Assembly (NCBI GenBank): GCA_009777175.1
Contig: WRMI01000003.1
Span: 242-64,241 of the forward strand
DNA length: 64,000 nt
Direction of reading: 5' to 3'
From: Marinilabiliaceae bacterium
GTDB lineage: Bacteria > Bacteroidota > Bacteroidia > Bacteroidales > Marinilabiliaceae
The translations under genes and the position numbers were made by a program. Numbering within the stretch: position 1 is the stretch's first letter; each line of letters begins with the position of its first letter. Below, piece after piece: positions 24,720 to 46,734 of the stretch. Below the pieces are notes generated by a model. The model was not told the origin of the DNA. It saw only the letters and a list, made by a program, of their open reading frames with translations, and ran no database searches.

Positions 24720-27700
24720 TTAATCTAAAGATTCAGATAAAATCTGTTGCATTTTCGGGAAACTGATTGGTGCTGTAACTGTTTTACACTCAATCTTTTT
24801 GATATTAATTCTTGTACATTTATCGCTTTGAGTTATTATGACAAGTGGCAAATCGGGTTTAACAGCATTAATTTGCTTAATGTTCTGTAAATCATCGTGT
24901 TCCAATGCATCTATATCAATAATAACTAAATCAGTAACAATGTTTTGATTAAAAAATTCCAACAACTGTTTCACGCTAAGTGCTTGAGTAACAGTTGCTC
25001 CTGTAACAGAAATCAACTTATCATAATATTTGAACTTCATTGTCATTGGTTCAACGAGTATAACAGACCTATCAATATAAGGTTTTTCGAGGTTTTTCTT
25101 TTCATATTTTCCGTCAAAAATTTGTGCGTCGTCGCAATCAATGGGTATATACATAATTGTGAAAAAGAATGTAGTACCTGTCTTTTCGGTTGATTCTACC
25201 CACATTTGGCCATCTTGAATTTGAACTAAATTGCGGGAAATTGTCAATCCAAGCCCTGTACCACCATATTGTCTGTTATTACCAAGTTCTACTTGCCTAA
25301 ACCTATCAAAAATTACTTCAAGTTGTTCGGGTGACATACCAATCCCTGAATCTTCTACAACAAATTCTAACCATTCGGGCGCAGATTTGCGATAAGAAAT
25401 CTTAATATAACCATCTTCGGTAAACTTTAACGCATTGTCTATTAAGTTAGTAAGTACTTGCCTCAAGCGCACAGCATCGGCAAATACTAAGCAGTCGTCA
25501 ATTGCACCACTTTCGTCTAAAATTAGATTGATATGTCCTTTGTTTCGGGTTGCAAAGTGTTCATCATAGAAAATTTTCAACTCCCGCATCAATTCGTTGA
25601 GTTTAACAGGATATGGATTAATTTTCAACTGATTTGCCTCAATTTTTGCAATATCTATTATATCTTCAACAAGTTTTGTAAGTTGTCGACTATTGTTATT
25701 AACAATTTCGATGTATTGTTGACGTTGTTCGCGTGGAATTTCGTCTGATGAAATAAATTTGAGGAAACCAACAATACCCGTCAAAGGAGTTCGAATTTCG
25801 TGAGACATATTAGCAAGGAATGCAGATTTAAGTTTATCAGATTCTTCTGCCTTATTTTTAGCGTTAATAAGTTCCAATTCATCCAATTTCCGTTGCGTTA
25901 TATCTCTGATTACCATAATTATAGACTCGTTTCTGCCTTCACTGTCTTTTATGGTAGTTGATGATATATCACTATAAAAAGAGGTATTATCAGCACGTTG
26001 CAACATAATTTCGGGTAAAAAGCTGAAATTTTCGGTTTTTAATATTTCAAAAAGTTCTAATGATTGTTTTCTATCTTGTTGACAAACAAATCTTAAAAGT
26101 CTTAAATTCGAGAGTTTAGTATTTTCAGCAAGTCCAAATAGGTTGAAAGTTTTGGTAGATGCAAATTTTACTCGTGCATTTCCGTCACAAACAATAATAG
26201 CGTCAGGGGATGCCACGGTAAGTTGTCGGTACATATCTTCCGACTGTCTTAATGATGTTTCGGCGTTATGCCTGCGAGTAGATGACGATATTATCTGCGA
26301 TAAATTTTTCAAAAGTTCAATTTCTTCTGTTTTCCATTCTCTGTTAAACCTGCATTCGTCAAAACCCACAAATCCGTAGTGATATCCGTAAGAAGTAAGA
26401 GGTAAAACCACTATTGATTTGATATTTTGAGCGTTCATCACTTCTTGAATTTCAGGAGAAAATGTATTAATGTCGGATGTACAAATTATTTCATCGTTTT
26501 CGAAGGCATCCCACCAGGGCTGTGCATTTTCGACAGGAATATTTTGGAGTGAATCAATTACGGGTTCTACACCTTCGTTGCACCATTCGACAGTATTGCT
26601 CATTGTTGTTTTGTCTTCGCTTTTTTCAAAAATATAAACTCGACTCACACCCGTAAATTTGCCCATTTCGTGTAGTGTAAGGTCTAATGCTTCGGATAAA
26701 CTTTTGATGGATTGCATTATTTGCAGTACATTGATAAGCGTATCTTGTCGTTTGTTGAGTGCAAGCAGATTTCCTTGACTTTTCTTAAGTTCGTTGGTCT
26801 TAATTTCGACCATCTCTTCTAACTGCGTACGGTATCTATCTAATTCCTGATTAATAATATTTTGCTCGGTAACATCGCGGATTATTTGACCCATAAAATT
26901 TTTATCGGGTAATTGAATAGTGAATGCGGTTAATTTCACTTCTCTTTCGAGTCCGTCTGCGGCTCGTATCATCATAACAAAATCTTCAGACTGCCTGTCT
27001 CCTTTTTCAGAATTAATAAAAGATTTAATCATATTTTGGTACTGCGCCAAAACAACTTCTTTATTATCTTCATGAATAACTTGCTCTAAAATTTCTCCAC
27101 ATTTTTTGTTTAGTGCTTTACTTGCTGGTATTCCCGAAATTCTTTCTTGTTCGTGGTTCCATTCTAAAATATTTCCTTCATTATCAGTAATCACAATACC
27201 TTCGAAGGATTGTTCTACGAAACTTCTCATTTTATTTTCGCTTTCTTCGAGACGTTTCATAATTTCCATTCGTGCAGAAAATTCTTTTGCTATTTGTGCG
27301 TTTTTCTTATGTAGTTCGTCGTTAATTGCGTGTAATTCTTCGTTGTTTGCGTAAAGTTCTTCGTTTGCTGAATTCAGTTCTTCGTTGACGGTATTAAGTG
27401 CGTCTGTCCTAACTTGAACTAATTGTTCTAAATTTTCGCGATATTGTTCTACTTCTAACTCAGTTTTTTTGCGGTCTGTAATATTAATAATCAGTCCGTC
27501 CCAAATAATTTGAGTGCTATCAATACGTGGTCGGGCAATTATGCGCATCCATTCGATTCCAAAACGAATTTCAATATCTATATCAGTCATATTACTTGCG
27601 CTTTCGTTAATCGATTTTAAGAAAAATTGAAGGTCATCGGGATGAAATATAGAAAAAACTTTTGTAATATCTGCGAGGGCGACCTCAGCGTCAATTTGGG

Positions 27701-29483
27701 TAACAATCTCCCATGTTTTACTGAGGTATGAAAATCTCATTTGACGGGTAATATTATCTCTAATAAATTGAAAAAGAGAACCTTGCGGGATATTGTTTCC
27801 TAATGTTTCAATTCTATTTTTTTCGGCTTCAAGCAATTGTTCTGTTTCTTTACGTTTTGAAATATCGGTCATAATACCGTCCCAAACGGTGTAAATTCCT
27901 TCATTTCGTGGGCGTGCCGTGATATTAATCCACTTTCCGTTTATTTTTGTTTCAAAAAGGTGGTAATTCATTGTTTTAGCACTATCTTCAATGGACTCAA
28001 TCAATGCGGGGAGGTCATTTGGCTCTATTGCGTCAAAAACGGAAGAAATATCATTAAGCGTATGTTGTGCGGGTATTCCCGATATAGATTCCCACGTTCC
28101 ACTAACATAAGACATCCGCATCTGTCCCGTTTGATTATTACGCATAAATTGATACAGTGCGCTTTCAGGGAGATTGTCGCCAAGCATTTGCAGACGTTTC
28201 TTTTCATTTTCTAATTCAGTTTCAGATTCTTTTCGTTGCGTTACGTCTGAAATTATTCCGTCCCAAATGGTACTATTTCCTTTTAATTGAGGCAATGATG
28301 ACATCTTAATCCACTTCGTTTGCCCGTGAACAGAAACACGAAACTCATGCAAAAATTTGCTCAAAGATTTGGCGCTTACTTCAACTTGAACCATCAAATC
28401 CATTATATCGTCTGGATGAACCATTGCAAAAAGAGTATCAATGTTTGATGTCGCAATTTCGTTAGGAACTCCTGTAATTTCTTCCCATTTAGCACTAACA
28501 AAAGAAAATCCCATTAATCCAGTTAAATTTTCGAGGTAAAATTGAAAAAGAGCACCGTCAGGAATATTGTTGCCCAAAGATTCCATCCGTTCTTTTTCGA
28601 TTAACAACTTTTGTTCTGCCTCTTTTCTTGCTGAAACATCAAAAACAAAACCGTCAGCATAGATTGTGTTACCTTTTCGATGTGGATATGACGAAAATTG
28701 AAGCCATAAACTCTTTTTTGTAACAGGGTGATTATAACGTACTTCAACGTTAAATTTATTGTGTGGGTCATCTGATTCGTAAATATTTTTTTTGAGAATT
28801 TCCCTATCCTCCACGGGCATATTAATCATAAGGTTTTTAATATCCGCCAAAGTATCCATTGCAGAAACTCCCATCAATTGTTCCCAAGATTTACTCACGT
28901 AATCGATTCTAATTTCACCCGTTCGGACATTTCTGACAGAACGATACAATGCGCCGTCAAGCATTTGGTCTATTGCTAACAATCGTTCATTTTGTGTAAG
29001 AAGTTGTTGTTCGGTCTCTTTTCGCGCGGTGATATCGAAAATTAATCCATTTGTATAAACAAAATTCTCATCTTTATTGGTATAGGCATTAACCTGTAGC
29101 CAATGTTTCTTTTTGGTTTGAGGATTTATATAACGAAAATCATAAATGAAATTAATGACACTCGTGTGTGAATCGTCAATTAATCTTTTGAATTTAATAA
29201 GGTCTTCGTGAATCACATGAACAAAAATATTTTCAATATCTTCGAGAGCTAAATCTTCTGATATTCCCATAATTTTTTCCCACGTTTCGTTAACAAAATC
29301 CAATTTATGAATTCCTGTGGTTAAATCCTTTACGCTACGGAACATTGTAGCGTCCGGTATTTTATTTAGAAAATGAAGAAAGTCGTTGTTATTATTATCT
29401 TTCTTTTGTGATAGTTCTAATTGTTTTTTGAGTTCGGCTACTTCTTTTTCTAAATCTTCATTATTTTTTCCAAAATGTTCCAT
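24720..29483 (-). CDS. Multi-PAS/GAF hybrid sensor histidine kinase with a receiver-like C-terminus
   Basis: Repeated PAS/PAC units and a NEEL-type coiled coil. H-box FLANMSHEIRTPL, G2 box GGTGLGLTISRNLV, and a C-terminal receiver-like domain (…DLVIIDIDA…). Confidence 0.9.
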   Translation of the reverse strand: MEHFGKNNEDLEKEVAELKKQLELSQKKDNNNNDFLHFLNKIPDATMFRSVKDLTTGIHKLDFVNETWEKIMGISEDLALEDIENIFVHVIHEDLIKFKRLIDDSHTSVINFIYDFRYINPQTKKKHWLQVNAYTNKDENFVYTNGLIFDITARKETEQQLLTQNERLLAIDQMLDGALYRSVRNVRTGEIRIDYVSKSWEQLMGVSAMDTLADIKNLMINMPVEDREILKKNIYESDDPHNKFNVEVRYNHPVTKKSLWLQFSSYPHRKGNTIYADGFVFDVSARKEAEQKLLIEKERMESLGNNIPDGALFQFYLENLTGLMGFSFVSAKWEEITGVPNEIATSNIDTLFAMVHPDDIMDLMVQVEVSAKSLSKFLHEFRVSVHGQTKWIKMSSLPQLKGNSTIWDGIISDVTQRKESETELENEKKRLQMLGDNLPESALYQFMRNNQTGQMRMSYVSGTWESISGIPAQHTLNDISSVFDAIEPNDLPALIESIEDSAKTMNYHLFETKINGKWINITARPRNEGIYTVWDGIMTDISKRKETEQLLEAEKNRIETLGNNIPQGSLFQFIRDNITRQMRFSYLSKTWEIVTQIDAEVALADITKVFSIFHPDDLQFFLKSINESASNMTDIDIEIRFGIEWMRIIARPRIDSTQIIWDGLIINITDRKKTELEVEQYRENLEQLVQVRTDALNTVNEELNSANEELYANNEELHAINDELHKKNAQIAKEFSARMEIMKRLEESENKMRSFVEQSFEGIVITDNEGNILEWNHEQERISGIPASKALNKKCGEILEQVIHEDNKEVVLAQYQNMIKSFINSEKGDRQSEDFVMMIRAADGLEREVKLTAFTIQLPDKNFMGQIIRDVTEQNIINQELDRYRTQLEEMVEIKTNELKKSQGNLLALNKRQDTLINVLQIMQSIKSLSEALDLTLHEMGKFTGVSRVYIFEKSEDKTTMSNTVEWCNEGVEPVIDSLQNIPVENAQPWWDAFENDEIICTSDINTFSPEIQEVMNAQNIKSIVVLPLTSYGYHYGFVGFDECRFNREWKTEEIELLKNLSQIISSSTRRHNAETSLRQSEDMYRQLTVASPDAIIVCDGNARVKFASTKTFNLFGLAENTKLSNLRLLRFVCQQDRKQSLELFEILKTENFSFLPEIMLQRADNTSFYSDISSTTIKDSEGRNESIIMVIRDITQRKLDELELINAKNKAEESDKLKSAFLANMSHEIRTPLTGIVGFLKFISSDEIPREQRQQYIEIVNNNSRQLTKLVEDIIDIAKIEANQLKINPYPVKLNELMRELKIFYDEHFATRNKGHINLILDESGAIDDCLVFADAVRLRQVLTNLIDNALKFTEDGYIKISYRKSAPEWLEFVVEDSGIGMSPEQLEVIFDRFRQVELGNNRQYGGTGLGLTISRNLVQIQDGQMWVESTEKTGTTFFFTIMYIPIDCDDAQIFDGKYEKKNLEKPYIDRSVILVEPMTMKFKYYDKLISVTGATVTQALSVKQLLEFFNQNIVTDLVIIDIDALEHDDLQNIKQINAVKPDLPLVIITQSDKCTRINIKKIECKTVTAPISFPKMQQILSESLD

Positions 29484-29522
29484 TTTATTTTATTATTTTC
29501 AGTTATTAGTTATCAGTTTTCA
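29484..29522. repeat. Inverted copy of the ACTGAnAACTGATAACTA heptamer core
   Basis: The plus strand reads CAGTTATTAGTTATCAGTTTTCA. This is the entire 39-nt spacer between the two PAS genes. Confidence 0.7.
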
Positions 29523-32264
29523 TTAACAATTTTCAGTAATTTCTTTAATAGATCCAGCAACTCTCAGTGCTGTTCCGTCGTTGTCTCTAATTGTAGCGCT
29601 GCATGCTAAAAATTTTCCGTACGTACCATCTTTTTTCTGCAACCTGTATTCGATGCAGAAAGTAGTTTTTCCGCTTATATCCAAAAGATGTGATTCAAAA
29701 GATTTTAATGTATTTTCTTTGTCATCGGGGTGAAGTTTGTCGCTCCAACTGTTAAAAGTATTTGGAAAATCATTAATAGAGGTGTATCCTAACAATTTTC
29801 TATATTCATCTGAAAAAGTCAAAATATTATTTGGGTTAATTGGGTCTCCGTTCACGACCTGCATATCCCAAATTCCAATATTTGTTGCCTCCACGAGCAT
29901 ATCCAATTTCGTTAATTGGTATTGGTTTTCGGCTAATGCGTCAATTAATTTTGCTTCGTGTCTTAAAATTTCTTCGGAAATAGTTTTTTCAGCCGTAATA
30001 TCTTGCACTGCGCCAACTGTTCTGATAGCGTTTCCCTCTTTATCTCTGACGGTTGAGCCGTATGATTTGAAATATCCATACTCGCCATTCTTCTTTAAGA
30101 GTTGATATTCAATATGATAGGGTGTCTTTCCGGTTTTATCCAAGATATGATTTTCAAATGCTTTCACTGCTCGTTCTCGGTCGTGCGGGTGAAGACGTTC
30201 ACTCCAACTGCTTATAACATTTGGAAATTCATCTTCGGGAGTGTATCCAAGCAATTTTTTATACTCGTCCGACCAAACTATTGAGATATTGGGGTTTATG
30301 GGCTCATCTATGGATTTTTTCATATCCCACATTCCAATACCAGATGCTTCTATTAACAAATCAAGTTTTGCAAGTTGATATCTGTTTTCTTGCAGCGCAT
30401 TAGAAAGTTTTGCCTCATTTTCTTCTAACTGTTTCACCACTTGCAAACGTCTTTCTACTTCGTTTTCTAATTCATTATTTTTTTGAAAAAGTTCATCATT
30501 AATTGCATTTAGTTCTTCGTTGTTTGACTTCAGCTCTTCGTTAATAATGTTTAATTCGTCGTTAGCCATTTTCAGTTCGTCAGTCCGTTGTTCGACAATA
30601 ACTTCTAATTTTTCGCGATAGAGTTTGAGTTCTTCTTCGCGATTTTTTGTTTCAGTAATGTTAATAATGATACCGTCCCAAACAATTAATACACCTTCTT
30701 TTCGGGGTCGAGAAATAATTCTCATCCATTGGTCGCCAAGCATTATTTCTCTTTTAAAGTCGGATAGATTAATTGCGCTTTGGTCAATATCTTTAAGAAA
30801 ATCGGGGAAATCTTCTAACGGTGTCAAAGAAAAAACTTTTGAAATATCTGCTAATGTATCAGCAATGCCAACTCCTGTAACGGATTCCCACGTATTTCCT
30901 ACGTAAGAAAAGCGCATCTGTTTTGTCCTCGAATCCCTAATAAACTGAAACAAAGAACCTCCGGGAATATTTTCGCCTAATGTTAATAATTTATTTTTTT
31001 CGGCTTCAAGTTCGTGTTGGACAATTTTCCAAGCAGTTATATTTGTAATAATACCGTCCCAAATTGTGTGTTGTACTTCTTTTCGTGGTCTTCCAATCAT
31101 TTTCAGCCATTGGTCTCCGAACTTTGTTTCGAAAATATGGTCGGTCATATTTCGTGAGCTTTCTTCGATGGATTTGATTAATAGCGTTAACTCGTTAGGA
31201 ACTATAATATCTAAAACATTTGACATTGCTGTTAGCGCTTTTTCGGCGGATACTCCTGTTACCGATTCCCACGTACCACTAACATAAGTGAAACGAAGTT
31301 GTCCCGTTCTGTTATCTCTAATAAATTGATACAGTGCGCTTCCGGGGAGGTTGTCGCCAAACATTTGTAAACGATTTTTTTCATTATTAAGGTCATCTTC
31401 TATTTTTTTCCTTTGAGTGATATCGGTCAATAGTCCGTCAAAAAAAGTGTAGTTGTCGTAACAAACCGGATTTGCCGCCACTTCTACCCAACGTGCTTTT
31501 CCGTGTACTGAAAGACGTAAATCGATACTAAAATTTTTCAAAGATTCAGAACTCTCTTGAATCGCTTGCACAAGTGCCTGTAAATCATCAGAATTAATGA
31601 TAGCAAATAAAGTGTCTAAATTTGCCATGGCTATATCAGAGGGAATTCCTGTGATTGATTCCCATTTTGCACTTACGTAAGTTAATTTTATTTGGTGCGT
31701 TTGATTATCGCGTGAAATCTGAAATAGTGTACTTTCTGGAATATTATTACCCAAAGATTCCAAACGCTCTTTTTCTATTAATAATTTTTCTTCTGCCCGC
31801 TTTCTTGCTGTTACATCGAAAATAAATCCGTTTGCAAAAATAAACTCTCCCTGAAGTACGGGATATGATGATATTTGATACCAAAATTCCTGTTTATGTA
31901 GTGGGTGTAAATAACGCACTTCAACAGAAAAATTGGTCAAAGGTGATAAAGATTCTTCGATGCGCTGAAATAGCAATTTCATGTCACTCGGAATTATGTT
32001 CCGAAAAACATTCATCGGATTTGATAAAGATTCTTCTATCGAAACGCCCATTAATTTTTCCCACGTTCCGCTTAAATAATCGAATTTTAAATCTTTGGTT
32101 TTCATATCTCTAACGGTACGGTACATTGTTCCGTCAGGCATTATACTCAAAGCTTTTAATAATTCTCTCTCGCTATCAGTTAATGAACACCGAGACTCAA
32201 GTTGGGTTTTTAAATATTTATTTTCATCTTCCAACTGTATGACATATTCTTCTAAATTGTTCAT
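29523..32264 (-). CDS. Multi-PAS protein without an output domain; paralog of the N-terminal half of the downstream kinase
   Basis: Coiled-coil N-terminus, about 4 PAS/PAC units, the NEEL stretch NDELNIINEELKSNNEELNAINDELFQKNNELENE, then two further near-duplicate PAS units. No HisKA/HATPase motifs. Confidence 0.85.
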   Translation of the reverse strand: MNNLEEYVIQLEDENKYLKTQLESRCSLTDSERELLKALSIMPDGTMYRTVRDMKTKDLKFDYLSGTWEKLMGVSIEESLSNPMNVFRNIIPSDMKLLFQRIEESLSPLTNFSVEVRYLHPLHKQEFWYQISSYPVLQGEFIFANGFIFDVTARKRAEEKLLIEKERLESLGNNIPESTLFQISRDNQTHQIKLTYVSAKWESITGIPSDIAMANLDTLFAIINSDDLQALVQAIQESSESLKNFSIDLRLSVHGKARWVEVAANPVCYDNYTFFDGLLTDITQRKKIEDDLNNEKNRLQMFGDNLPGSALYQFIRDNRTGQLRFTYVSGTWESVTGVSAEKALTAMSNVLDIIVPNELTLLIKSIEESSRNMTDHIFETKFGDQWLKMIGRPRKEVQHTIWDGIITNITAWKIVQHELEAEKNKLLTLGENIPGGSLFQFIRDSRTKQMRFSYVGNTWESVTGVGIADTLADISKVFSLTPLEDFPDFLKDIDQSAINLSDFKREIMLGDQWMRIISRPRKEGVLIVWDGIIINITETKNREEELKLYREKLEVIVEQRTDELKMANDELNIINEELKSNNEELNAINDELFQKNNELENEVERRLQVVKQLEENEAKLSNALQENRYQLAKLDLLIEASGIGMWDMKKSIDEPINPNISIVWSDEYKKLLGYTPEDEFPNVISSWSERLHPHDRERAVKAFENHILDKTGKTPYHIEYQLLKKNGEYGYFKSYGSTVRDKEGNAIRTVGAVQDITAEKTISEEILRHEAKLIDALAENQYQLTKLDMLVEATNIGIWDMQVVNGDPINPNNILTFSDEYRKLLGYTSINDFPNTFNSWSDKLHPDDKENTLKSFESHLLDISGKTTFCIEYRLQKKDGTYGKFLACSATIRDNDGTALRVAGSIKEITENC

Positions 32265-35269: not shown

Positions 35270-35494
35270 ATGATGCACAAAGAGTTTCATATCGGAAAGA
35301 TGATACTTCAAAATCTGAACGAAAAAGAGCGAAATGTAGCCTGGCTTGCTCGAAAATTAAGTTGCAACGACGCAAATTTAGGTAGACAACTCGCAAATAG
35401 CAAGCATATTCATTGCGAATTGTTGCTACGAATTTCAAATGTTCTGAAAAAAGATTTTTTTGTACACTATTCTGAGATAGTTGATTTGCAATAA
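35270..35494 (+). CDS. Small HTH (XRE-like) DNA-binding protein
   Basis: 74 aa; ...RNVAWLARKLSCNDANLGRQLANSKHIHCELLLRISNVLKKDFF resembles short Bacteroidota HTH regulators. Confidence 0.45.
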   Translation: MMHKEFHIGKMILQNLNEKERNVAWLARKLSCNDANLGRQLANSKHIHCELLLRISNVLKKDFFVHYSEIVDLQ

Positions 35495-35618: not shown

Positions 35619-35683
35619 ATACAGAACTCCTGATTTGCTATTTGCTATTTCATTAAAACACAAAACATTTCGATAATGATCCC

Positions 35684-35844
35684 GCATTTTTGGGATATCC
35701 CCCGAATTGCGCTTATTGGGCGACCGCGAGGGTACGCCCCTACCGGGTTATCTACGTTGCACTCGTACCGAGTGCTGCAGGTTATCGAATGTGTTTCCGT
35801 TTCTTGGGGTGTCAATATCATTCGGGACATCCCCCCAAAAATGC
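35684..35844. mobile_element. MITE-like element (family R2) with roughly 24-nt imperfect terminal inverted repeats
   Basis: Left end GCATTTTTGGGATATCCCCCGAAT; right end ATTCGGGACATCCCCCCAAAAATGC. Internal conserved hairpin GCACTC-GTACC-GAGTGC. No coding capacity. Confidence 0.5.
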
Positions 35845-35877
35845 AACATATTTAGTTTATAGTTGCATTTTTGTAAT

Positions 35878-36069: not shown

Positions 36070-37083
36070 ATGACAAAAAAAATAATTGTTTTTATCGCAA
36101 CACTCCTGTTTTGTGGAGTAGTTGCCGCACAAAATCAGAACGAACATGAGGAGTTTTTGAATGCTCAATTTCTGATTTTAGAGGAAGTTCAGCCGCTAAC
36201 GCAGGCAGAACGAGATCAAATGAAAAGCATTTTCTATGAGGAAATTGCTGAATCGGGTATTCAAGATTTTGCCTTTAATATGGCAATGAGTGCAACGCTC
36301 AAAGATATTGAATACTATAAACATTATTACAAGGATGCGATTGCAAAAAGAGCATGGGTTTTGTACCACGAAGATCTATTCTTTTATGAAGAAGAAATGG
36401 AACTTGCTGAGTCTACGCTCGAATCAGTTAAACCTGATTTAAAAGAGCTTAGCGAGCAATTAGCACTTGTTGAACTCTATTTTTTTGCCACACCGTTTGA
36501 TATCTATGATATTAAAGCGGATGTCAGGTTTAGGTACGAAAAAAACATTTCTGATATTTATATCAGAAGTGATTCCAAAGGAACGAGTTATAATCTTGGG
36601 TTGGTGTTGCAAAACAGAGAACAGCTAAATCTCAGTATGCAACAAATTGACGCTATTGTGGATGCTGCGCAGGAAATTAAAACACTTTCTGACGACGGCT
36701 CTATTGACGAACTAAGCAATAATTGCTGGCTCTTTGAACGTGAATTTATCATTGATGCCTTAAGCGAGGAGCAAGTTAGCGAATTTGTAATTATTCGTTA
36801 TTCAGATGATGCAGCAAAGTATGCTATTGAAACGTGGAAAGAAGGAAAAGCCTATCAAATTGAGTATGGAAATGATTCAATTGCGGTTTTAGATGATCTC
36901 TTTTATTATCAAATAAATAAGTTGATAATACAGTACATTTATTATGATGATAAAGAGAAAATGAAAGAGATGTTAGATTTTTGGTATAAAGAGGCTTACC
37001 CTCAATTTTTAAGGCAACTTGTTGCGGAACGCCGCAGACGAGAAGCAGAAGAGATTGACGAAAAAGATTATTTTAAATTTTAA
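36070..37083 (+). CDS. Secreted, predicted all-helical acidic protein, no recognisable family
   Basis: Signal peptide MTKKIIVFIATLLFCGVVAAQ. First gene of the operon. Confidence 0.6.
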   Translation: MTKKIIVFIATLLFCGVVAAQNQNEHEEFLNAQFLILEEVQPLTQAERDQMKSIFYEEIAESGIQDFAFNMAMSATLKDIEYYKHYYKDAIAKRAWVLYHEDLFFYEEEMELAESTLESVKPDLKELSEQLALVELYFFATPFDIYDIKADVRFRYEKNISDIYIRSDSKGTSYNLGLVLQNREQLNLSMQQIDAIVDAAQEIKTLSDDGSIDELSNNCWLFEREFIIDALSEEQVSEFVIIRYSDDAAKYAIETWKEGKAYQIEYGNDSIAVLDDLFYYQINKLIIQYIYYDDKEKMKEMLDFWYKEAYPQFLRQLVAERRRREAEEIDEKDYFKF

Positions 37084-37096
37084 AAATCAGTATGTT

Positions 37097-38521
37097 ATGA
37101 ATAAATTAAAAATAATTGTAACAATTTTGCTAATGCCGTACTCTATTTTCATTATAGCTCAAATACCCAATCCGCAAGATTCAGTTATAATGGAAAAATT
37201 ACAACTTGCCAATAGTCTTCTTTTGTCAAATGGACAAGAGAGGGCGTATCAACTATATTTTGAATGTGCTGAAGTTGGCAATGCTTACGCAATGAATGCT
37301 CTCGGTATTCTTAAACAGCGCGGGTGGGGTACTGAGCAAGACGAAACAGGCTCCATTGAATGGTTTCAAAATGCAGCTCAAGCAGGGTACGCAAAAGCCT
37401 ATTATAACCTTTTTCATGCTTATGCAAAAGCACTCGGAGTAGAGCAAAATTTTGAATATGTGGTTAATTATCTTGATACGCTACATAATACACAGCATCG
37501 TTCGGTTGCGCTTATGTATCTTGGTTATTATTACTACAAAGGTTTTGGAGTAGAACAAAATTATGAAACCGCCGTTGATTATTTCCTACAGTCTGCGGAA
37601 TTTGATAATGCTGATGCATTATATTTTCTCGGGTTGTGCTACCGAAACGGATACGGAGTTGTTCCAGACGAGGAGATAGCGATATTTTATCTAAATCGCG
37701 CTACTCAATTAGGTCATTATTACTCTTTTGAAGAATTAGAAGAGGAATCGCCGGAAATAATTATTGAACCAAAAAATATATCAATGACTGGCGAAAACGG
37801 TGAGAATGAAATATCTCGAATCCCCCAACAATATCGACAACTTGAACAGATAAATTTGAATAATGATATTGGTGGTGAATACGTAGGAACTATCGTAATG
37901 TACGATTATAGCGGAAAGAAAATTGTAAAAAAATCTAAATTAAAGATATCGTTTGATGATACAAGTGATGGCAAAATTTTTGGAAAGTGGATTGAAAATG
38001 ATACACTCTATACCGATTTTGAAGCAATTTTAACAGAAAATGCCTTGCAGTTTATTGACACAGAATATCACCGAACAGAGAGATATCATAAAAATTATGC
38101 AAGAAAATGGCAATTTAAAAACGCCATTTTAGAAAAGACCGAAACTGACAGTATTTCATATCTTGTGGGCAATATCAGACAATATGATATAAAACGTAAA
38201 GAACCGAGCAAGCCATTATACATTTCTTTGCAAAAGAGTAAAAGTGAGGAAACACAATTAGACACAGAAAAAGATTTTTTTATTGCGTATCCAAATCCAT
38301 TTGAAAACAATATAAATGTCATCTTTACGTTAGAGAAGGAAATAAATGTAATTATTTCGGTTTATGAAGCAACAGGTAAACTTTTTGATAGACAAAGCCT
38401 TGGCGTTTTGCAAACAGGGCAACATAATTATTTGCTTGCTCTTTCGGCACCCAAAGGGCAATATATGCTTGTGGTGCAAACAGGAGACAATAAAATATCT
38501 AGTTTAATCATCAAAAAATAA
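37097..38521 (+). CDS. Sel1-repeat protein with a T9SS C-terminal sorting domain
   Basis: Start at the ATG giving MNKLKIIVTILL... (signal peptide). Several Sel1 units (AYAMNALGILKQRGWGTEQDE..., ALMYLGYYYYKGFGVEQNYE..., ALYFLGLCYRNGYGVVPDEE...). C-terminal YPNPFENNINVIF...GQYMLVVQTGDNKISSLIIKK. Confidence 0.85.
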   Translation: MNKLKIIVTILLMPYSIFIIAQIPNPQDSVIMEKLQLANSLLLSNGQERAYQLYFECAEVGNAYAMNALGILKQRGWGTEQDETGSIEWFQNAAQAGYAKAYYNLFHAYAKALGVEQNFEYVVNYLDTLHNTQHRSVALMYLGYYYYKGFGVEQNYETAVDYFLQSAEFDNADALYFLGLCYRNGYGVVPDEEIAIFYLNRATQLGHYYSFEELEEESPEIIIEPKNISMTGENGENEISRIPQQYRQLEQINLNNDIGGEYVGTIVMYDYSGKKIVKKSKLKISFDDTSDGKIFGKWIENDTLYTDFEAILTENALQFIDTEYHRTERYHKNYARKWQFKNAILEKTETDSISYLVGNIRQYDIKRKEPSKPLYISLQKSKSEETQLDTEKDFFIAYPNPFENNINVIFTLEKEINVIISVYEATGKLFDRQSLGVLQTGQHNYLLALSAPKGQYMLVVQTGDNKISSLIIKK

Positions 38522-38527
38522 TACATT

Positions 38528-39580
38528 ATGAAAAAATATTTGAATTTTTTAGCAATTTTTGCGCTCTTAGTGAGCATTGTGAAAATTAATGGACAAGAAT
38601 GCTCAGGATATTGGGACGAGTGGGATCAAGTGGCAAGTGGAGAAGAAACACCAAGTTTTTTCCATCCAAATGTTATTATTAAGAGATTTAGGTGGGATCA
38701 ATGGGATGATGGTCATAATAATGGTAATCCTAACAATCCAGGATCACCTGGAAATCCTGGACAGGGAAATAATGGGTATAATGGATATTCAGTTGATTTA
38801 CACTTAATGACTTATAATCAATGGCGAGGAAGTGCACGTTATGGCAAACATAAAGATGTAATCAACGGTAGTGGTGCACGGGTAGTTGCATTACAGGAAC
38901 AGTTAGGATTGAAAAGGTTTAATCGGCTTAAGAAAAAAACTGGGAGAGAAGGCACTTTCTTGGTTACTGACAGTTGCGCAAACGGTCTTTGCCAATACTA
39001 TGGAATAGCAATGTTGTGGAAAAAAAGTGAAATAGGTATTTCTCCAACGATTTATCATAGAAGAGTTACACTCCCACAGCAAGATAATTATTCCAATAAA
39101 GCACCTTATATAATAGGTGAATTTTCATCTTATTGTGTTGTTTGTGTTCATTACCCTCTTGTTTCAGAAAACCAAGTCGCTATGTCAGACGCAATTTTAG
39201 CAGATCCAATTATTGCAAGTCGTATAGAAGATGAAAGACCGATATATATTGCTGGTGATTTTAATTGTGATTATGATAACGAGGCAGTAAAGAGATTTAC
39301 GAGAGATAATAATTTTTATGTTCTTAATGATAAAGAATTTAGTTATCAAAATGGTAAGAGGATTTTCGAACATGCTACTAAGAAAGATGGCTCTATGATT
39401 GACTTGATACTTGAGTATAATCCCAAATATAATAAAACAGTATCATGGCGTGGAATACCATCATCTTTTTCTCCTGGTTGGTTAGGTCCATGTGTATTGT
39501 GTAATAATTTAATATGTCCATTTCATGTGTCAGACCATTTTCCTTATTATGTTAAACTTTGGTTTCAATATGTTTATTAA
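38528..39580 (+). CDS. Secreted endonuclease/exonuclease/phosphatase (EEP, DNase I-fold) family protein, copy 1
   Basis: Signal peptide; G/N/P-rich linker; the ordered EEP catalytic motifs LMTYNQW, VVALQE, VVCVHYP, IAGDFN, SMIDLIL and VSDHFP. Confidence 0.8.
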   Translation: MKKYLNFLAIFALLVSIVKINGQECSGYWDEWDQVASGEETPSFFHPNVIIKRFRWDQWDDGHNNGNPNNPGSPGNPGQGNNGYNGYSVDLHLMTYNQWRGSARYGKHKDVINGSGARVVALQEQLGLKRFNRLKKKTGREGTFLVTDSCANGLCQYYGIAMLWKKSEIGISPTIYHRRVTLPQQDNYSNKAPYIIGEFSSYCVVCVHYPLVSENQVAMSDAILADPIIASRIEDERPIYIAGDFNCDYDNEAVKRFTRDNNFYVLNDKEFSYQNGKRIFEHATKKDGSMIDLILEYNPKYNKTVSWRGIPSSFSPGWLGPCVLCNNLICPFHVSDHFPYYVKLWFQYVY

Positions 39581-39593
39581 AATTAAATAAATT

Positions 39594-40181
39594 ATGAAGT
39601 CGAAAGTAGTAATAATATTGACATTGTTTATTGTTTTAGTATCTTCGTGCTTTAAAGAAGAAATTGTTTACTATGACATTGCTGAGTGGCAACATAAAAT
39701 GATACCATACCAATTAGGTCAAACTATCACGTTTATTGATACTTTGGGACGAAGTTCTGATGTACATGTAACTAATGATACAACAGCATATTATGATGTT
39801 TTACATATTACAACTCCCGCATATACACAATATACACAATATAGGGAAATAAGATTAATGTCTGACAAACAAGATATTAACATAACATTTGAAATTTTTG
39901 GCACGGGGAGAGATATAATTGTAACATTTTTTGATAATTGGCGGAGTACATTGAGTCATGATGAAGAAGGTAGGTTTATAACTTTCGAGAGTAATAATAG
40001 AAAACAATCTTTATTCGATTCCTTAGAAATAAACAACACAATCCTATACGATGTAGTTGAGCATAATTATTATCATTACTCGACAAAGAAACTTATGTTG
40101 CATCTTTTATACAACACAACTTACGGCATCCTTCATTTTGAATATGAAGAAAGAGTGGTTTATACGTTGGCAGATTTGTAA
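39594..40181 (+). CDS. Lipoprotein partner, copy 1 (no recognisable family)
   Basis: Lipobox LVSSC and a beta-rich sequence. Homologous to the ORF at 41820 (shared KM[IV]PY..GQ, DEEG[RK]FI, LFDS[LI]EINN, LLYNTTYG[IV]L). Confidence 0.65.
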   Translation: MKSKVVIILTLFIVLVSSCFKEEIVYYDIAEWQHKMIPYQLGQTITFIDTLGRSSDVHVTNDTTAYYDVLHITTPAYTQYTQYREIRLMSDKQDINITFEIFGTGRDIIVTFFDNWRSTLSHDEEGRFITFESNNRKQSLFDSLEINNTILYDVVEHNYYHYSTKKLMLHLLYNTTYGILHFEYEERVVYTLADL

Positions 40182-40224
40182 AATAATAAAGTCGAAAGTA
40201 GTAATATTTGCAATAGTTAGAAAC

Positions 40225-40776
40225 GGTAAAATTATCGGCAAATGGATTGAAAATGATACACTCTATACCGATTTTGAAGCAATTTTAACAGAAAATGCCT
40301 TGCAGTTTATTGACACAGAATATCACCGAACAGAGAGATATCATAAAAATTATGCAAAAAAATGGCAATTTAAAAATGCTATTTTAGAAAAGACCGAAAC
40401 TGACAGTATTTCATATCTTGTGGGTAATATAAGGCAATATGATATAAAACGTAAAGAGCCGAGCAAGCCATTATACATTTCTTTGCAAAAGAGTAAAAGT
40501 GCGGAAACACAGTTAGAGACCGAAAAAGATTTTTTTATTGCATATCCAAATCCATTTGAAAACAATATTAATATCATCTTTACGTTAGAGAAGGAAATGA
40601 ATGTAATTATTTCGGTTTATGAAGCAACAGGTAAACTTTTTGATAGACAAAGCATTGGCGTTTTGCAAACAGGGCAACATAACTATTTGCTTGCTCTTTC
40701 GGCACCAAAAGGGCAATATATGCTTGTGGTGCAAACAGGGGACAATAAAATATCTAGTTTAATCATCAAAAAATAA
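40225..40776 (+). pseudogene. 5'-truncated copy of the 3' third of the Sel1/T9SS-CTD gene (orphan CTD module)
   Basis: Aligns to 37970-38521 with about 19 mismatches by hand count. It has no start codon or signal peptide of its own. The ORF-track entry 40057..40776 only gains an N-terminus by reading out of frame through the preceding gene. Confidence 0.65.
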
Positions 40777-40782
40777 TACATT

Positions 40783-41808
40783 ATGAAAAAATATTTGAAA
40801 TTTTTAGCAATTTTTGCGCTCTTATTGAGCGTTTTGGAAATTAATGGACAAGAATGTGCAGGATATTGGGACGAGTGGGATCAAGTGGCAAGTGGAGAAG
40901 GAACACCAAGTTTTTTTCCACCCGGTTATAATCCTGTGAGGTTTTTAGGAGATTTATGGGATGATGGTCATAACGATCCTGGCAGCCCACATCATCCTGG
41001 GAACCAAGGCCCCACCACATATAGTTCCCTAGATTTAATGACTTATAATTTATATCGTAATAGTGCACGTTATGGAAAACACAAAGATGTTATTAACGGT
41101 AGCGGAGCAAATATAGTAGCATTGCAGGAAATGTTAGGTTCTAATAGATTTAACAGACTTAAGAAAAAAACAAGTATGAATGGAAATTTCTTGATTACTG
41201 ACAATTGTGCAAACTGGTTTTTTCAAAATTACGGTATAGCTCTATTATGGAAAAATTATCACTTACCAGACATAACTCAAAGAATAAATCCAAATCTTTC
41301 CCCTTATATAATAGGAGAATTTACAAGTTTTTGTGTTGTTTGTGTTCATTACCCTTTAAATAAAAATGATCAAACGTCTATGTCCAACACAATATTAGCC
41401 GACCCGGTGATTGTAGCTTGCCAAAACGCCGAAAAACCAATTTTTATTGCGGGCGATTTTAATCGAAGTCCTTGGGGTGATAATGAAAACTACCCTATTA
41501 AAGCATTTACAGACCAAGGTTATGAAGTGCTAAATTTTCTGGGCACATATGAAGACCCTCCGAATTCTGGTAACTATAAATGGGATCACGCAACAAAAAA
41601 GGATGGCTCTATGATAGATTTGATACTTGAGTATAGTACTAAATCAGATAAATCTACCGATTGGGGTTTCAGTGGCATTCCCTCTTCTTTTCCTTCTAGC
41701 TGGTTAGGAAAGTGTGATTGTTGTGAAAAGGGGTGGTGCCCCTGTCAACAACATGTTTCAGACCATTTTCCATACCTTGTAAAACGTCGGTGGAAGGCGT
41801 ATGACTAA
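40783..41808 (+). CDS. Secreted EEP (DNase I-fold) family protein, copy 2
   Basis: Same motif set (LMTYNLY, IVALQE, VVCVHYP, IAGDFNRSP, SMIDLIL, VSDHFP). The first ~45 codons are nearly identical to copy 1 and the rest has diverged. Confidence 0.8.
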   Translation: MKKYLKFLAIFALLLSVLEINGQECAGYWDEWDQVASGEGTPSFFPPGYNPVRFLGDLWDDGHNDPGSPHHPGNQGPTTYSSLDLMTYNLYRNSARYGKHKDVINGSGANIVALQEMLGSNRFNRLKKKTSMNGNFLITDNCANWFFQNYGIALLWKNYHLPDITQRINPNLSPYIIGEFTSFCVVCVHYPLNKNDQTSMSNTILADPVIVACQNAEKPIFIAGDFNRSPWGDNENYPIKAFTDQGYEVLNFLGTYEDPPNSGNYKWDHATKKDGSMIDLILEYSTKSDKSTDWGFSGIPSSFPSSWLGKCDCCEKGWCPCQQHVSDHFPYLVKRRWKAYD

Positions 41809-41819
41809 TAAGAAAAAAT

Positions 41820-42503
41820 ATGAAATCGAAAATATTAGTATTGTTATTTGCCTTGCCGGTTGTTTTTGTTTTATCTTGTGAGAAGGAACAAATCGATTAC
41901 TTTTACTTGACTGATACTCAAATTAAGATGGTACCATACACTTTCGGTCAGTCTGTTATGTGTCTTGATTTTTATGGAGATAGTTTTGAACTAATTGTAG
42001 TAGAAGATTACATGTTTTATTCGGAACTCAATTGGGATGCCCCCCGTTATACTAAACACATACAACATCGTGAAGTAAGATTGAATTCTAATAGAAAAAA
42101 TAAACAAAATTATGAAATATATATAGGTTATTCAGGGGAGGATAATTATATTGCGTTTCGAATCTTATATAATTTGTGGTATGGTTTACACCATGACGAT
42201 GAAGGAAAATTTATAATTTCAGAAAGTTATAATAGCAGACAATTCTTATTCGATTCCATAGAAATCAACAATAATATCTATTACGATGTTATTGAGAATA
42301 ATCATATTAACCCTGATAACAACAATGAAATAGTAGGTCGGCTATTATACAACACAACCTACGGTGTCCTTCTATTTGAACATAGGGATATAGAAGGTTT
42401 TGTTATAGATAATTTTTCAAACAACAATATAAATGAAAAAAGTAATTTTTGTTATTTCAATCCTGTTGATTTCACATATAGCGGTTTCTCAGATTATAAA
42501 TGA
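41820..42503 (+). CDS. Lipoprotein partner, copy 2
   Basis: Lipobox FVLSC. Homologous to 39594..40181. Its 3' end overlaps the next ORF by 71 nt. Confidence 0.6.
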   Translation: MKSKILVLLFALPVVFVLSCEKEQIDYFYLTDTQIKMVPYTFGQSVMCLDFYGDSFELIVVEDYMFYSELNWDAPRYTKHIQHREVRLNSNRKNKQNYEIYIGYSGEDNYIAFRILYNLWYGLHHDDEGKFIISESYNSRQFLFDSIEINNNIYYDVIENNHINPDNNNEIVGRLLYNTTYGVLLFEHRDIEGFVIDNFSNNNINEKSNFCYFNPVDFTYSGFSDYK

Positions 42504-42954
42504 TACGTTATATCAAGGAAAAATTGAATCAAAAAAGGTGCTATTGCCCAGAAATGAATTTGCTTTTTCGTTAGGTGGTGTTGTAGAGCAATTAAAACCA
42601 TTTTATGGTGTTGGTGCTTTCACATTCTCCTACCACAAACGTAATAAAATTAAAAATTGGTTTTGGTTTGGTTTTTGTTCAGCCGATATTCATGGGCAAA
42701 ACCGTTATGGTTATTATAGATATGTTTCAATTGCACCCTCAATACGTTTTTCGTTTCTAAATGAACCAAAAGTTACACTATATTCGGGTCTTTCACTAGG
42801 GATAGGAATAATGACTGGTGCTTTCGGAGGAATCTTTCCTTTTTACCAAATAACGCCAATCGGTTTTTCTTACGGCAAACGATTCTTTGTTGGTGGTGAG
42901 TATGGTTATGGTTTAAAAGGTTCTTTTTGTGGTAATGTAGGCTATAGGTGGTGA
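42433..42954 (+). CDS. Small outer-membrane beta-barrel-like protein
   Basis: Signal peptide, alternating Gly/aromatic strands, and a C-terminal ...GNVGYRW aromatic beta-signal. Confidence 0.5.
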   Translation: MKKVIFVISILLISHIAVSQIINDTLYQGKIESKKVLLPRNEFAFSLGGVVEQLKPFYGVGAFTFSYHKRNKIKNWFWFGFCSADIHGQNRYGYYRYVSIAPSIRFSFLNEPKVTLYSGLSLGIGIMTGAFGGIFPFYQITPIGFSYGKRFFVGGEYGYGLKGSFCGNVGYRW

Positions 42955-42988
42955 TTGAAACCATCCTGAACACCACAAGTATGTATTA

Positions 42989-43071
42989 CTCTTTCCGCAC
43001 CCCAAGGGCAATATATGCTTGTGGTACAATTAGAAAACAAAAAATTTACAAATTTAATTATAAAAAAATAG
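42989..43071 (+). pseudogene. Relic of a third T9SS-CTD 3' end
   Basis: CTCTTTCCGCACCCCAAGGGCAATATATGCTTGTGGTACAA... translates to LSAPQGQYMLVVQLENKKFTNLIIKK*. Compare LSAPKGQYMLVVQTGDNKISSLIIKK* in the two upstream copies. Confidence 0.6.
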
Positions 43072-43077
43072 ACAATC

Positions 43078-43176
43078 ATGAACAAATTATTGAAAAAAAT
43101 TATTACTTTTGCATTCATTTTCACAATTTTTGCCCAACTTGCCCAACTATTTCACACATTTCGTACCAAATATTAG
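43078..43176 (+). pseudogene. 32-codon signal-peptide relic following the third CTD relic
   Basis: The ATG lies 6 nt after the relic stop, the same spacing as CTD-to-EEP in copies 1 and 2. It encodes MNKLLKKIITFAFIFTIFAQ... and then stops. Confidence 0.35.
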
Positions 43177-46259: not shown

Positions 46260-46331
46260 GGTCCCTTCGTCTAGTGGTTAGGACGCAAGGTTTTCATCCT
46301 TGAAACAGGGGTTCGATTCCCCTAGGGACTA
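46260..46331 (+). tRNA. tRNA-Glu (TTC), copy 1
   Basis: Same layout as canonical tRNA-Glu: GGTCCCT-TC-GTCTAGTGGTTAGGAC..., anticodon loop TTTTCAT, T-arm AGGGG-TTCGATT-CCCCT. Confidence 0.9.
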
Positions 46332-46370
46332 CAAATATTGTAAGTAAATAACAGATAATTTTATAAAAAG

Positions 46371-46631: not shown

Positions 46632-46703
46632 GGTCCCTTCGTCTAGTGGTTAGGACGCAAGGTTTTCATCCTTGAAACAGGGGTTCGATTCCCCTAGGGA
46701 CTA
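46632..46703 (+). tRNA. tRNA-Glu (TTC), copy 2, identical to copy 1
   Basis: Base-for-base identical to 46260-46331. Confidence 0.9.
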
Positions 46704-46734
46704 CTATATTTTATCAATTTAATATCATTATATT

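Follow-up and report, generated by a model that had tools for sequence, protein, structure and literature searches.

Two exported EEP phosphodiesterases with partner lipoproteins in a Bacteroidales gene cluster: a possible effector and immunity arrangement

What kind of enzymes are two exported phosphodiesterases encoded side by side in a Bacteroidales genome, and why is each of them followed by a lipoprotein gene? The question is raised by a stretch of 64,000 nucleotides of a Marinilabiliaceae bacterium (contig WRMI01000003.1; hereafter the window), which contains two genes for enzymes of the endonuclease/exonuclease/phosphatase (EEP) superfamily, here called EEP1 and EEP2. An earlier examination of the letters and open reading frames (ORFs), the sequence-only reading, had described both as exported nucleases or phosphodiesterases, with a motif layout resembling that of cytolethal distending toxin B (CdtB) and DNase I more than that of sphingomyelinases (SMases). 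The EEP fold and its chemistry are already known, and an EEP enzyme alone would be routine; the point of the locus is the pairing of an unnamed EEP subfamily with an unnamed lipoprotein family. Indeed, the EEPs are strictly paired with a lipoprotein, and the locus is cassette-like and recombining. This organization resembles that of polymorphic toxins, and it is tentatively read here as an exported EEP phosphodiesterase effector that would be neutralised by its cognate lipoprotein, a reading to which we assign a probability of about 0.45.

The EEP enzymes and their partner lipoproteins

EEP1 (38528–39580, plus strand) is an ORF of 350 residues and EEP2 (40783–41808, plus strand) one of 341 residues. 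They are intact paralogues with 58% protein identity (E = 3e-128). EEP1 consists of a signal peptide (38528–38593), a W/D/E-rich segment, a G/N/P linker (38711–38788), and the catalytic domain, which begins at about 38790. The signal peptide, as read from the sequence, is MKKYL...ING|QEC, with cleavage predicted before Gln23. The low-complexity linker had been recognized by the sequence-only reading, including its shorter form in EEP2; it comprises residues 62–87 of EEP1 and is predicted to be disordered. In the AlphaFold2 model of EEP1, the confidence score (pLDDT) is below 50 over residues 14–87. The term collagen-like, which had been applied to this linker, was rejected because it is short and of low complexity, without sustained G-X-Y periodicity. 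The acidic/aromatic segment that had been noted as conserved is present in both proteins, but it lies inside a DNA tract that is 94–100% identical between the two copies, so its conservation is not evidence of constraint.

The motifs LMTYN, [VI]VALQE, KHKDVINGSGA, VVCVHYP, IAGDFN, SMIDLIL, and VSDHFPY were all located in EEP1 and EEP2, with RSP following IAGDFN in EEP2. Both proteins modestly exceed the gathering cut-off of the Pfam family PF03372 (Exo_endo_phos; 24.5 bits), scoring 29.9 bits for EEP1 and 31.3 bits for EEP2, and the family is matched by 43 of 44 relatives. In the alignment of these 44 members, the invariant positions (EEP1/EEP2 numbering) are N97/89, Q123-E124/115-116, H208/189, D244/225, N246/227, D292/279, and S335-D336-H337/326-328. 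The catalytic residues are intact in EEP1 (N97, E124, H208, D244, N246, D292, D336, and H337) as well as in EEP2 (N89, E116, H189, D225, N227, D279, D327, and H328). L266 and P339 in EEP1 numbering are likewise invariant, though not canonical catalytic positions, and are intact in EEP2. The predicted core of EEP1 (pLDDT about 80) adopts a four-layer α/β sandwich; a Foldseek comparison of this model with the PDB gave 210 matches at E ≤ 1e-3, with a best E value of 4e-11, and the best 50 of the 210 are all EEP enzymes. The complete catalytic set, the Sec signal peptide, and the position of the genes in a same-strand run of exported-protein genes bear out the earlier view that these enzymes are exported and not housekeeping. 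Judged from their sequences, EEP1 and EEP2 are Sec-exported, catalytically intact, non-housekeeping EEP enzymes of a distinct subfamily.

The most variable part of these enzymes lies directly ahead of the catalytic SDH motif. In EEP1, a hypervariable loop (W318–H333, WLGPCVLCNNLICPFH; 39479–39526, plus strand) connects the last two strands and abuts SDH, and the corresponding loop of EEP2 (WLGKCDCCEKGWCPCQQH; 41701–41754, plus strand) is Cys-rich. The clustered cysteines that had been described as a Cys-rich tail are real (C322, C325, and C330 in EEP1; C311, C313, C314, C319, and C321 in EEP2). However, the family alignment places them not in a tail but in an insertion between the invariant WLG and SDH, which is limited to the closest relatives. 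In other family members, the same loop is Trp-rich, hydrophobic, or short.

Each enzyme is followed by the gene of its partner. Lipoprotein 1 (39594–40181, plus strand; 195 residues, lipobox LVSS|C, mature isoelectric point (pI) 4.9) starts 13 nt past EEP1, and lipoprotein 2 (41820–42503, plus strand; 227 residues, lipobox VLS|C, mature pI 4.6) starts 11 nt past EEP2. The two share 41% identity, and lipoprotein 2 is 71% identical to the lipoprotein that follows the closest relative of EEP2 (P0003, 62% identity to EEP2) in locus L001. The lipoproteins are acidic (pI 4.6–4.9), in contrast to the catalytic domains of the enzymes, which are neutral to basic. Neither lipoprotein belongs to a Pfam or NCBIfam family. 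The AlphaFold2 model of lipoprotein 1 is all-β with a pLDDT of 89.5, but Foldseek found nothing significant in the PDB (best E = 5e-3, TM-score ≤ 0.37) and no lectin-like match; the family thus combines a confidently predicted fold with the lack of a PDB match. Resemblances of the model to LolA/RseB/LprG and to YmcC-like proteins were discarded as unusable at TM-scores of ≤ 0.37.

With lipoprotein 1 as the sole query, a word-index search gave a single close match, and a profile built from homologues derived from the loci was then used. Against 5.8 billion proteins, it collected 22 members, all unnamed and without a Pfam family. The lipoproteins that follow close members of the EEP subfamily are acidic and about 170 residues long, and most members of the lipoprotein family lack an acidic surface-export motif after the lipid-modified Cys. 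When the profile was run as a hidden Markov model (HMM) over all ORFs of 90 fetched loci, its only matches were ORFs, spread over 11 loci, that lie immediately downstream of close EEP relatives; next to the more distant EEPs of L012 and L014–L082 there was none. Searches of Pfam, NCBIfam, the PDB, and the searchable literature turned up neither the EEP–lipoprotein module nor the lipoprotein family.

For the enzymes, a word-index search returned only 4 EEP relatives outside the window, and 1.84 billion representatives searched exhaustively with an HMM gave 364 matches at E ≤ 1e-3, 65 of them at E < 1e-30. Almost all genome matches of the subfamily come from metagenome-assembled genomes (MAGs) of gut Bacteroidales. 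The N-terminal modules vary (W/D-rich, lamin-tail domain (LTD), 3-coathanger stack, or Cys-rich repeats), and the enzyme domain remains C-terminal. In Bacteroidales of the mouse-gut type, one LTD-EEP gene has as many as five divergent lipoprotein genes behind it, and arrays of 2–5 such genes after a single EEP gene were observed in L006, L010/L087, L011, and L031. The lipoprotein genes of L087 and L010 are interspersed with two orphan fragments of the last 53 codons of the EEP gene, whose identities to the full-length gene are 92% and 63%. These fragments span the conserved GGNMIDLILEYN motif, the variable loop, and SDH, and each of them directly precedes a further intact lipoprotein gene. L088, a sister assembly, lacks one module that is present in L087, which amounts to strain-level variation. 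On 17 contigs, a lipoprotein of the family (P0165) has no EEP gene nearby and just a 17-residue remnant of an EEP C-terminus 5 nt upstream; here, the lipoprotein appears to have been kept without its enzyme.

P0165 sits near other exported enzymes, a C25 peptidase and an Amidase_6 protein that carries a type B sorting domain of the type IX secretion system (T9SS), each with a Peptidase_S74 protein ahead of it. Two small lipoproteins beside P0165 (L083, 4158–4766 and 5262–5840) were considered as relatives of the partner family and rejected, as hhalign gave probabilities of 5–9%. Across L083 (1197–10243) and L087 (2259–5172), a secreted Peptidase_S74 protein of about 360 residues stands ahead of a C25 peptidase, an Amidase_6-CHU_C T9SS protein, and an LTD-EEP, and exported enzymes preceded in this way may belong to a wider modular effector system. 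A separate observation concerns P0059, a protein of 6831 residues with 29 separate short matches to positions 112–166 of the EEP profile, a pattern that points to a repeat whose unit is a single EEP segment.

A possible effector and its cognate lipoprotein

According to the favoured reading, the enzyme would be exported through Sec, cleaved before Gln23, and folded outside the cytoplasm, where the canonical EEP residues would cleave a phosphodiester. The lipoprotein would be tethered to the periplasmic side of the outer membrane, as the lack of an acidic surface-export motif in most members suggests; there, it would bind the enzyme, with the hypervariable pre-SDH loop or its vicinity as the probable contact, and block it in the producer and its kin. 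In the relatives, the 3′ end of the EEP gene and the lipoprotein gene would move as a unit, and displaced units would pile up downstream. In the window, the recombination tract sits instead at the junction between the T9SS gene and the 5′ end of the EEP gene. Toxicity, inhibition, the binding site, and a role of the pair in antagonism are what we infer here.

Two features of toxin/immunity systems are found at these loci. The partner gene is immediately downstream of the enzyme gene and strictly linked to it, at the distances and in the 11 loci given above. Orphan tip modules, arrays, and orphan immunity-like genes occur in the relatives; in the window itself, there are two complete cassettes and a single decayed 5′ junction. 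Orphan but intact partner genes, decaying 3′ tips of the enzyme gene, and a variable loop that travels with the partner gene constitute the signature of polymorphic toxin/immunity systems, and such a pattern is hard to reconcile with a lipoprotein that is a mere anchor or helper. Polymorphic toxin loci such as those of contact-dependent inhibition (CDI), Rhs, and the Tle-Tli pairs of type VI secretion systems (T6SS) share several further traits with the EEP loci: a C-terminal enzyme domain behind variable N-terminal modules, a small downstream partner gene, partner arrays amid orphan toxin 3′ fragments, partners without an enzyme, and strain-level variation. A lipoprotein partner outside the cytoplasm also fits effectors that act in the periplasm, the Tle lipases among them. 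The layout of cassettes and orphan modules has reliably flagged toxin/immunity systems elsewhere. Yet, the EEP loci differ in that CDI, Rhs, and T6SS genes are not nearby, and in that the EEP goes via Sec, with only T9SS-sorted or Peptidase_S74 proteins as neighbours.

Several observations weigh against this reading. Delivery machinery (T6SS or CDI) adjoins none of the loci, the EEPs carry no T9SS sorting domain, and the only export signal on the EEP is that for Sec, so a route of the enzyme to a target cell is not evident. The delivery-related neighbours are a T9SS-sorted Sel1 protein in the window, L003, and L004, or Peptidase_S74 proteins in L083 and L087. The fold of the lipoprotein is uninformative and gives no independent mark of an inhibitor, and the match of the EEP remnant next to P0165 is weak (E = 0.004). 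Paralogous lipoproteins are arrayed in nutrient-uptake loci of Bacteroidota as well, and the orphan 3′ fragments could be neutral debris of unequal crossing-over. The evidence on the substrate is in conflict, as the N-terminal half of the enzyme is ExoIII/APE-like and the C-terminal half SMase-like only at E = 0.006–0.04. In addition, no precedent for an EEP toxin whose immunity protein is a lipoprotein came up in the literature searched, either for Bacteroidetes or among polymorphic toxins.

If the effector reading is true, an EEP phosphodiesterase would join the antagonism repertoire of gut Bacteroidales, and a new family of immunity proteins would be defined. It would also provide a handle on how Sec-exported effectors without a T6SS or T9SS signal gain access to their targets. 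A far more specific version can be imagined, in which the locus is a new interbacterial weapon of Bacteroidales: a Sec-exported SMase-like EEP would attack (sphingo)phospholipids in the envelope of competitors after release via the T9SS-sorted Sel1 protein or in vesicles, a periplasmic lipoprotein of novel fold would protect kin, and the variable pre-SDH hairpin and the lipoprotein gene would be swapped as a cassette, which would reshuffle specificity. In this full form, the idea is speculative and improbable.

Substrate class and competing explanations

Searches of the PDB with the single sequences of EEP1 and EEP2 (phmmer) returned chance matches only, such as RhaR and an antibody chain, and were therefore uninformative, so profiles were needed. 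A profile of the 44-sequence family was used at full length and then split into an N-terminal and a C-terminal half, the lists for the half-domains being complete at E ≤ 10. At full length, the best matches were NExo of Neisseria (9.5e-8), BVU_0621 (2e-7), ExoIII (5e-7), and Nocturnin (1e-6), followed by APE1 (about 1e-5), Staphylococcus aureus β-hemolysin (1.4e-5), and the L1 endonuclease. The 46 matches of the N-half consist of ExoIII/APE, Nocturnin, BVU_0621, and CCR4-type enzymes, with one non-EEP chain, the kinase ITK/TSK, as a chance match (E = 0.56). The 15 matches of the C-half are led by three bacterial sphingomyelinases: β-hemolysin (0.006), SmcL (0.015), and the Bacillus cereus SMase (0.035). 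The best 50 of the 210 Foldseek matches of the EEP1 model include CNOT6L, Nocturnin, BVU_0621, TDP2, the Bacteroides thetaiotaomicron EEP 3mpr, nSMase, ANGEL2, synaptojanin, and three EEP proteins from structural genomics.

DNase I and CdtB chains occur in neither half-domain list at E ≤ 10, nor among the 60 of 69 full-length matches listed, nor among the best 50 of the 210 Foldseek matches. The profile searches and structure comparison that the sequence-only reading had itself proposed as a check thus found other EEP subfamilies as the best matches, and by its own terms the CdtB/DNase I part of its proposal fails; its preference over sphingomyelinases is reversed in the C-half, where those enzymes match best. 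The motif-III His and the GDFN(R) motif are not diagnostic of CdtB and DNase I because they are common to many EEP subfamilies. The wider description as nucleases or phosphodiesterases may still apply, but a tempting annotation error is avoided in that the proteins should not carry CdtB-like or DNase I-like genotoxin labels.

Among the NCBIfam models, xth matches 30 of the 44 members (weakly, best 1e-10), ExeM/NucH (NF033681) 8 of them weakly, and the MnuA membrane nuclease 5, and the CdtB model NF011787 matches two relatives (E = 0.06) but neither EEP1 nor EEP2. Against xth (TIGR00633), whose cut-off is 99.05 bits, EEP2 reaches 14.2 bits and EEP1 has no match; for both, no nuclease model of NCBIfam was matched near its cut-off. 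The Pfam and NCBIfam scans found neither an LTD nor NF033681 in EEP1 and EEP2, the LTD being confined to some relatives.

Comparison with characterized enzymes points in two directions. The ExoIII/Xth-APE1, ExeM/NucH, Xds, and MnuA nucleases share with the family the EEP fold, the catalytic Asn/Glu/Asp/Asn/Asp/Asp-His set, and the best N-half matches, and the exported combination of lamin-tail and EEP domains known from ExeM/NucH and Xds recurs in some family members. Yet, ExoIII and NExo have a motif-III Tyr where the family has His, the family scores fall far below the cut-offs, and the window proteins lack the LTD. To our knowledge, none of these nucleases has a dedicated lipoprotein partner. 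The bacterial SMase C enzymes (B. cereus SMase, β-hemolysin, and Listeria SmcL) are likewise secreted EEPs with a motif-III His and provide the best C-half matches, and the family's aromatic/hydrophobic loop just ahead of SDH is placed by the alignment on their membrane-binding hairpin. In the C-half alignment, W318-L319 of EEP1 fall on W284-F285 of the B. cereus SMase, with a profile E value of only 0.006–0.04 and a loop pLDDT of about 50. W284-F285 form the apex of the aromatic membrane-binding hairpin that distinguishes SMases from DNase I (PMC9710629). The alignment of the loop with this hairpin is to be taken as a lead and not as a classification; the matches are weak, the N-half is unmatched, and the loop of the window proteins is Cys-rich rather than a plain aromatic hairpin. 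BVU_0621 (PDB 3g6s), the B. thetaiotaomicron EEP (PDB 3mpr), and Nocturnin/CNOT6L are among the top profile and structure matches and share the THY/THF context of motif III, but they are only 13–17% identical and have no partner lipoprotein, and Nocturnin and CNOT6L act in eukaryotic RNA or NADP(H) metabolism.

The family profile by itself leans slightly toward a DNA nuclease. LTD-bearing relatives and profile similarity favour a nuclease, whereas the extracytoplasmic partner and the hydrophobic loop at the SMase position favour an envelope lipid. If the pair is a toxin and its immunity protein, an envelope target can be argued for, such as the head group of a phospholipid or sphingolipid cleaved in the manner of SMase C, because the antidote is an extracytoplasmic lipoprotein. 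As far as we know, lipoprotein immunity proteins belong to periplasm-acting effectors, and the known nuclease toxins have cytoplasmic ones. On balance, the substrate may be a lipid or another envelope component or, nearly as plausibly, nucleic acid; any other class seems unlikely.

The main rival to an effector with cognate lipoprotein is an extracellular or periplasmic nuclease that degrades extracellular DNA or scavenges nucleotides and phosphate, in the way of Vibrio Xds, Shewanella ExeM/NucH, or B. thetaiotaomicron BT3563, with the lipoprotein as an anchor, a substrate-binding partner, or an export helper. The DNA nucleases that head the full-length and N-half lists (NExo, ExoIII, APE1, and the L1 endonuclease), the xth, ExeM/NucH, and MnuA matches in NCBIfam, and the N-terminal lamin-tail domain of some members, a domain that Xds and ExeM carry, all fit such a role, as do the pI of 8.65 of the EEP1 catalytic domain and its conserved KHK, LKKKT, and ATKK motifs. 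However, all these matches are far under the family cut-offs (14 bits for EEP2 against 99 for xth), and TonB-dependent or SusC/D-type uptake genes are absent from the close loci. Moreover, without the enzyme there would be no use for an anchor or helper, but lipoprotein genes have survived intact as orphans and in arrays next to EEP fragments. A secreted DNase is in use by Bacteroides, namely the surface DNase BT3563 of B. thetaiotaomicron, but BT3563 is not stated to be an EEP (PMC8851478). BT3563 was considered as a member of the family and set aside, as no link could be established; the B. thetaiotaomicron match (L061) is a different protein, a fusion of a GH20 and an EEP domain. Taken together, a scavenging nuclease appears rather unlikely, though it is the strongest of the competing explanations.

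Distinctly improbable is a non-toxic envelope or glycan phosphoesterase, i.e., a housekeeping hydrolase of lipid head groups or a phosphatase of sugar phosphates comparable to the Bacteroides mannose-6-phosphatase, with the lipoprotein as its regulator. Distant Bacteroides EEP domains do lie in glycan-utilisation loci, as in L061 (4366–6693), where the GH20-EEP fusion stands beside SusD, GH18, and sulfatase genes, and mannosyl-6-phosphatase 4c1r and the EEP 3mpr are among the weak matches. Yet, the relatives in such glycan loci are only about 25% identical and have no lipoprotein partner, glycan-utilisation genes are missing from the window cluster and the close loci, and cassette polymorphism, orphan modules, and strain-level variation would be unexpected of a housekeeping enzyme. 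For the distant branch itself, the GH20-EEP fusion suggests a role on glycan phosphodiesters. The last explanation, a genotoxic nuclease of the CdtB/DNase I type with flanking genes as possible delivery subunits like CdtA/CdtC, is largely refuted at the level of sequence and fold and is very improbable. It could draw on the shared superfamily and secretion, on the motif-III His, GDFN(R), and SDHFP of both proteins, and on a gene order of secreted protein, EEP, and lipoprotein that superficially recalls cdtA-cdtB-cdtC. Specific similarity is lacking in the profile lists and in the best 50 of the 210 Foldseek matches, however, and the CdtB model misses the window proteins. In addition, the upstream gene encodes a Sel1/T9SS protein instead of a ricin-type lectin, the lipoprotein model has no lectin-like match, so CdtA/CdtC-like partners are not in evidence, and the hosts are MAGs of gut-commensal-type Bacteroidales.

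The gene cluster and its surroundings

The EEP genes belong to a cluster of same-strand genes for exported proteins that lies between a tRNA-Met gene (34555) and a group formed by DUF3276, tRNA-His, and dprA. Its order is a 337-residue secreted protein, a Sel1/T9SS protein, EEP1, lipoprotein 1, a truncated T9SS copy, EEP2, lipoprotein 2, a 173-residue protein, and a decayed third junction. The spacing is mostly 6–13 nt or overlapping, and the widest gap, of 43 nt, is ahead of the truncated T9SS copy. The first gene (36070–37083, plus strand) encodes the 337-residue exported protein, which begins with a signal peptide and matches no Pfam family. The second (37019–38521, plus strand) encodes a Sel1-repeat protein with a C-terminal T9SS type A sorting domain, identified by Pfam (Sel1, E = 2e-22; Por_Secre_tail, E = 6e-8) and NCBIfam (TIGR04183, E = 8e-11). 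Its listed start is TTG at 37019, but the ATG at 37097 (MNKLKIIV...) is likely the actual one. The gene stops 6 nt ahead of EEP1. In L003 and L004, both from Prevotellaceae-labelled MAGs, the order of 337-residue protein, Sel1/T9SS protein, and EEP is retained, with homologues of the 337-residue protein in the same place upstream and a spacing of 5–6 nt between the latter two genes.

Recombination within the cluster is evident from its repeats. A tract at 37998–38640, with its partner at 40253–40895, comprises the 3′ half of the T9SS gene and the first 37 or so EEP codons. Sliding identity of the aligned units is 94–100% in this tract and 41–78% across the remaining EEP and lipoprotein genes. 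The conservation of the tract between the copies is largely explained by recent recombination and is therefore no evidence of constraint. The truncated second copy (40225–40776, plus strand) covers the C-terminal 185 or so residues of the Sel1/T9SS protein and lacks a signal peptide; it has 95–98% DNA identity to 37970–38521 and 92% protein identity, and it is probably a recombination remnant. The listed ORF at 40057–40776, intact over 239 codons with an open frame, overlaps the end of lipoprotein 1.

Downstream of lipoprotein 2 lies the gene of a 173-residue exported protein that ends in ...GNVGYRW (42433–42954, plus strand). It has no Pfam or NCBIfam family and is possibly a small outer-membrane β-barrel. 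Its homologues come after each lipoprotein in L001 (76% and 41% identity), a syntenic locus of a Marinilabiliaceae-labelled MAG with two EEP–lipoprotein cassettes and the same remnants as the window. The decayed third junction (42986–43176, plus strand) consists of a remnant of the T9SS tail and the first 32 EEP codons (ATG at 43078, MNKLLKKIITFAF..., stop at 43174–43176). This junction forms the third copy of repeat D2, with 78% identity, and its N-terminal sequence agrees with the signal peptides in P0003 and P0005. As the same remnant is found in L001, it is older than the divergence of the two genomes.

Public sequencing runs were searched for the locus, and none was listed; a scan for promoters and terminators gave counts at chance level, such scans being uninformative for Bacteroidota. 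In the noncoding stretch between tRNA-Met and the exported-protein cluster, a small ORF (35270–35494, plus strand; MMHKEFHIGKMILQNLNEKERNVAWLARKL...) resembles a short helix-turn-helix regulator. A GC-rich element at 35676–35852, in AT-rich intergenic surroundings, has long inverted repeats and a folding z-score of −2.4; it has no match in Rfam, and neither the window nor the fetched loci contain another copy. Elsewhere in the window, 16329–21392 encodes a T9SS-sorted protein of 1687 residues with CarboxypepD_reg repeats, and 24720–32264 (minus strand) two very large PAS-domain sensors, with histidine-kinase domains on 24720–29483. Two tRNA-Glu(UUC) genes, at 46260–46332 and 46632–46704, lie about 370 nt apart.

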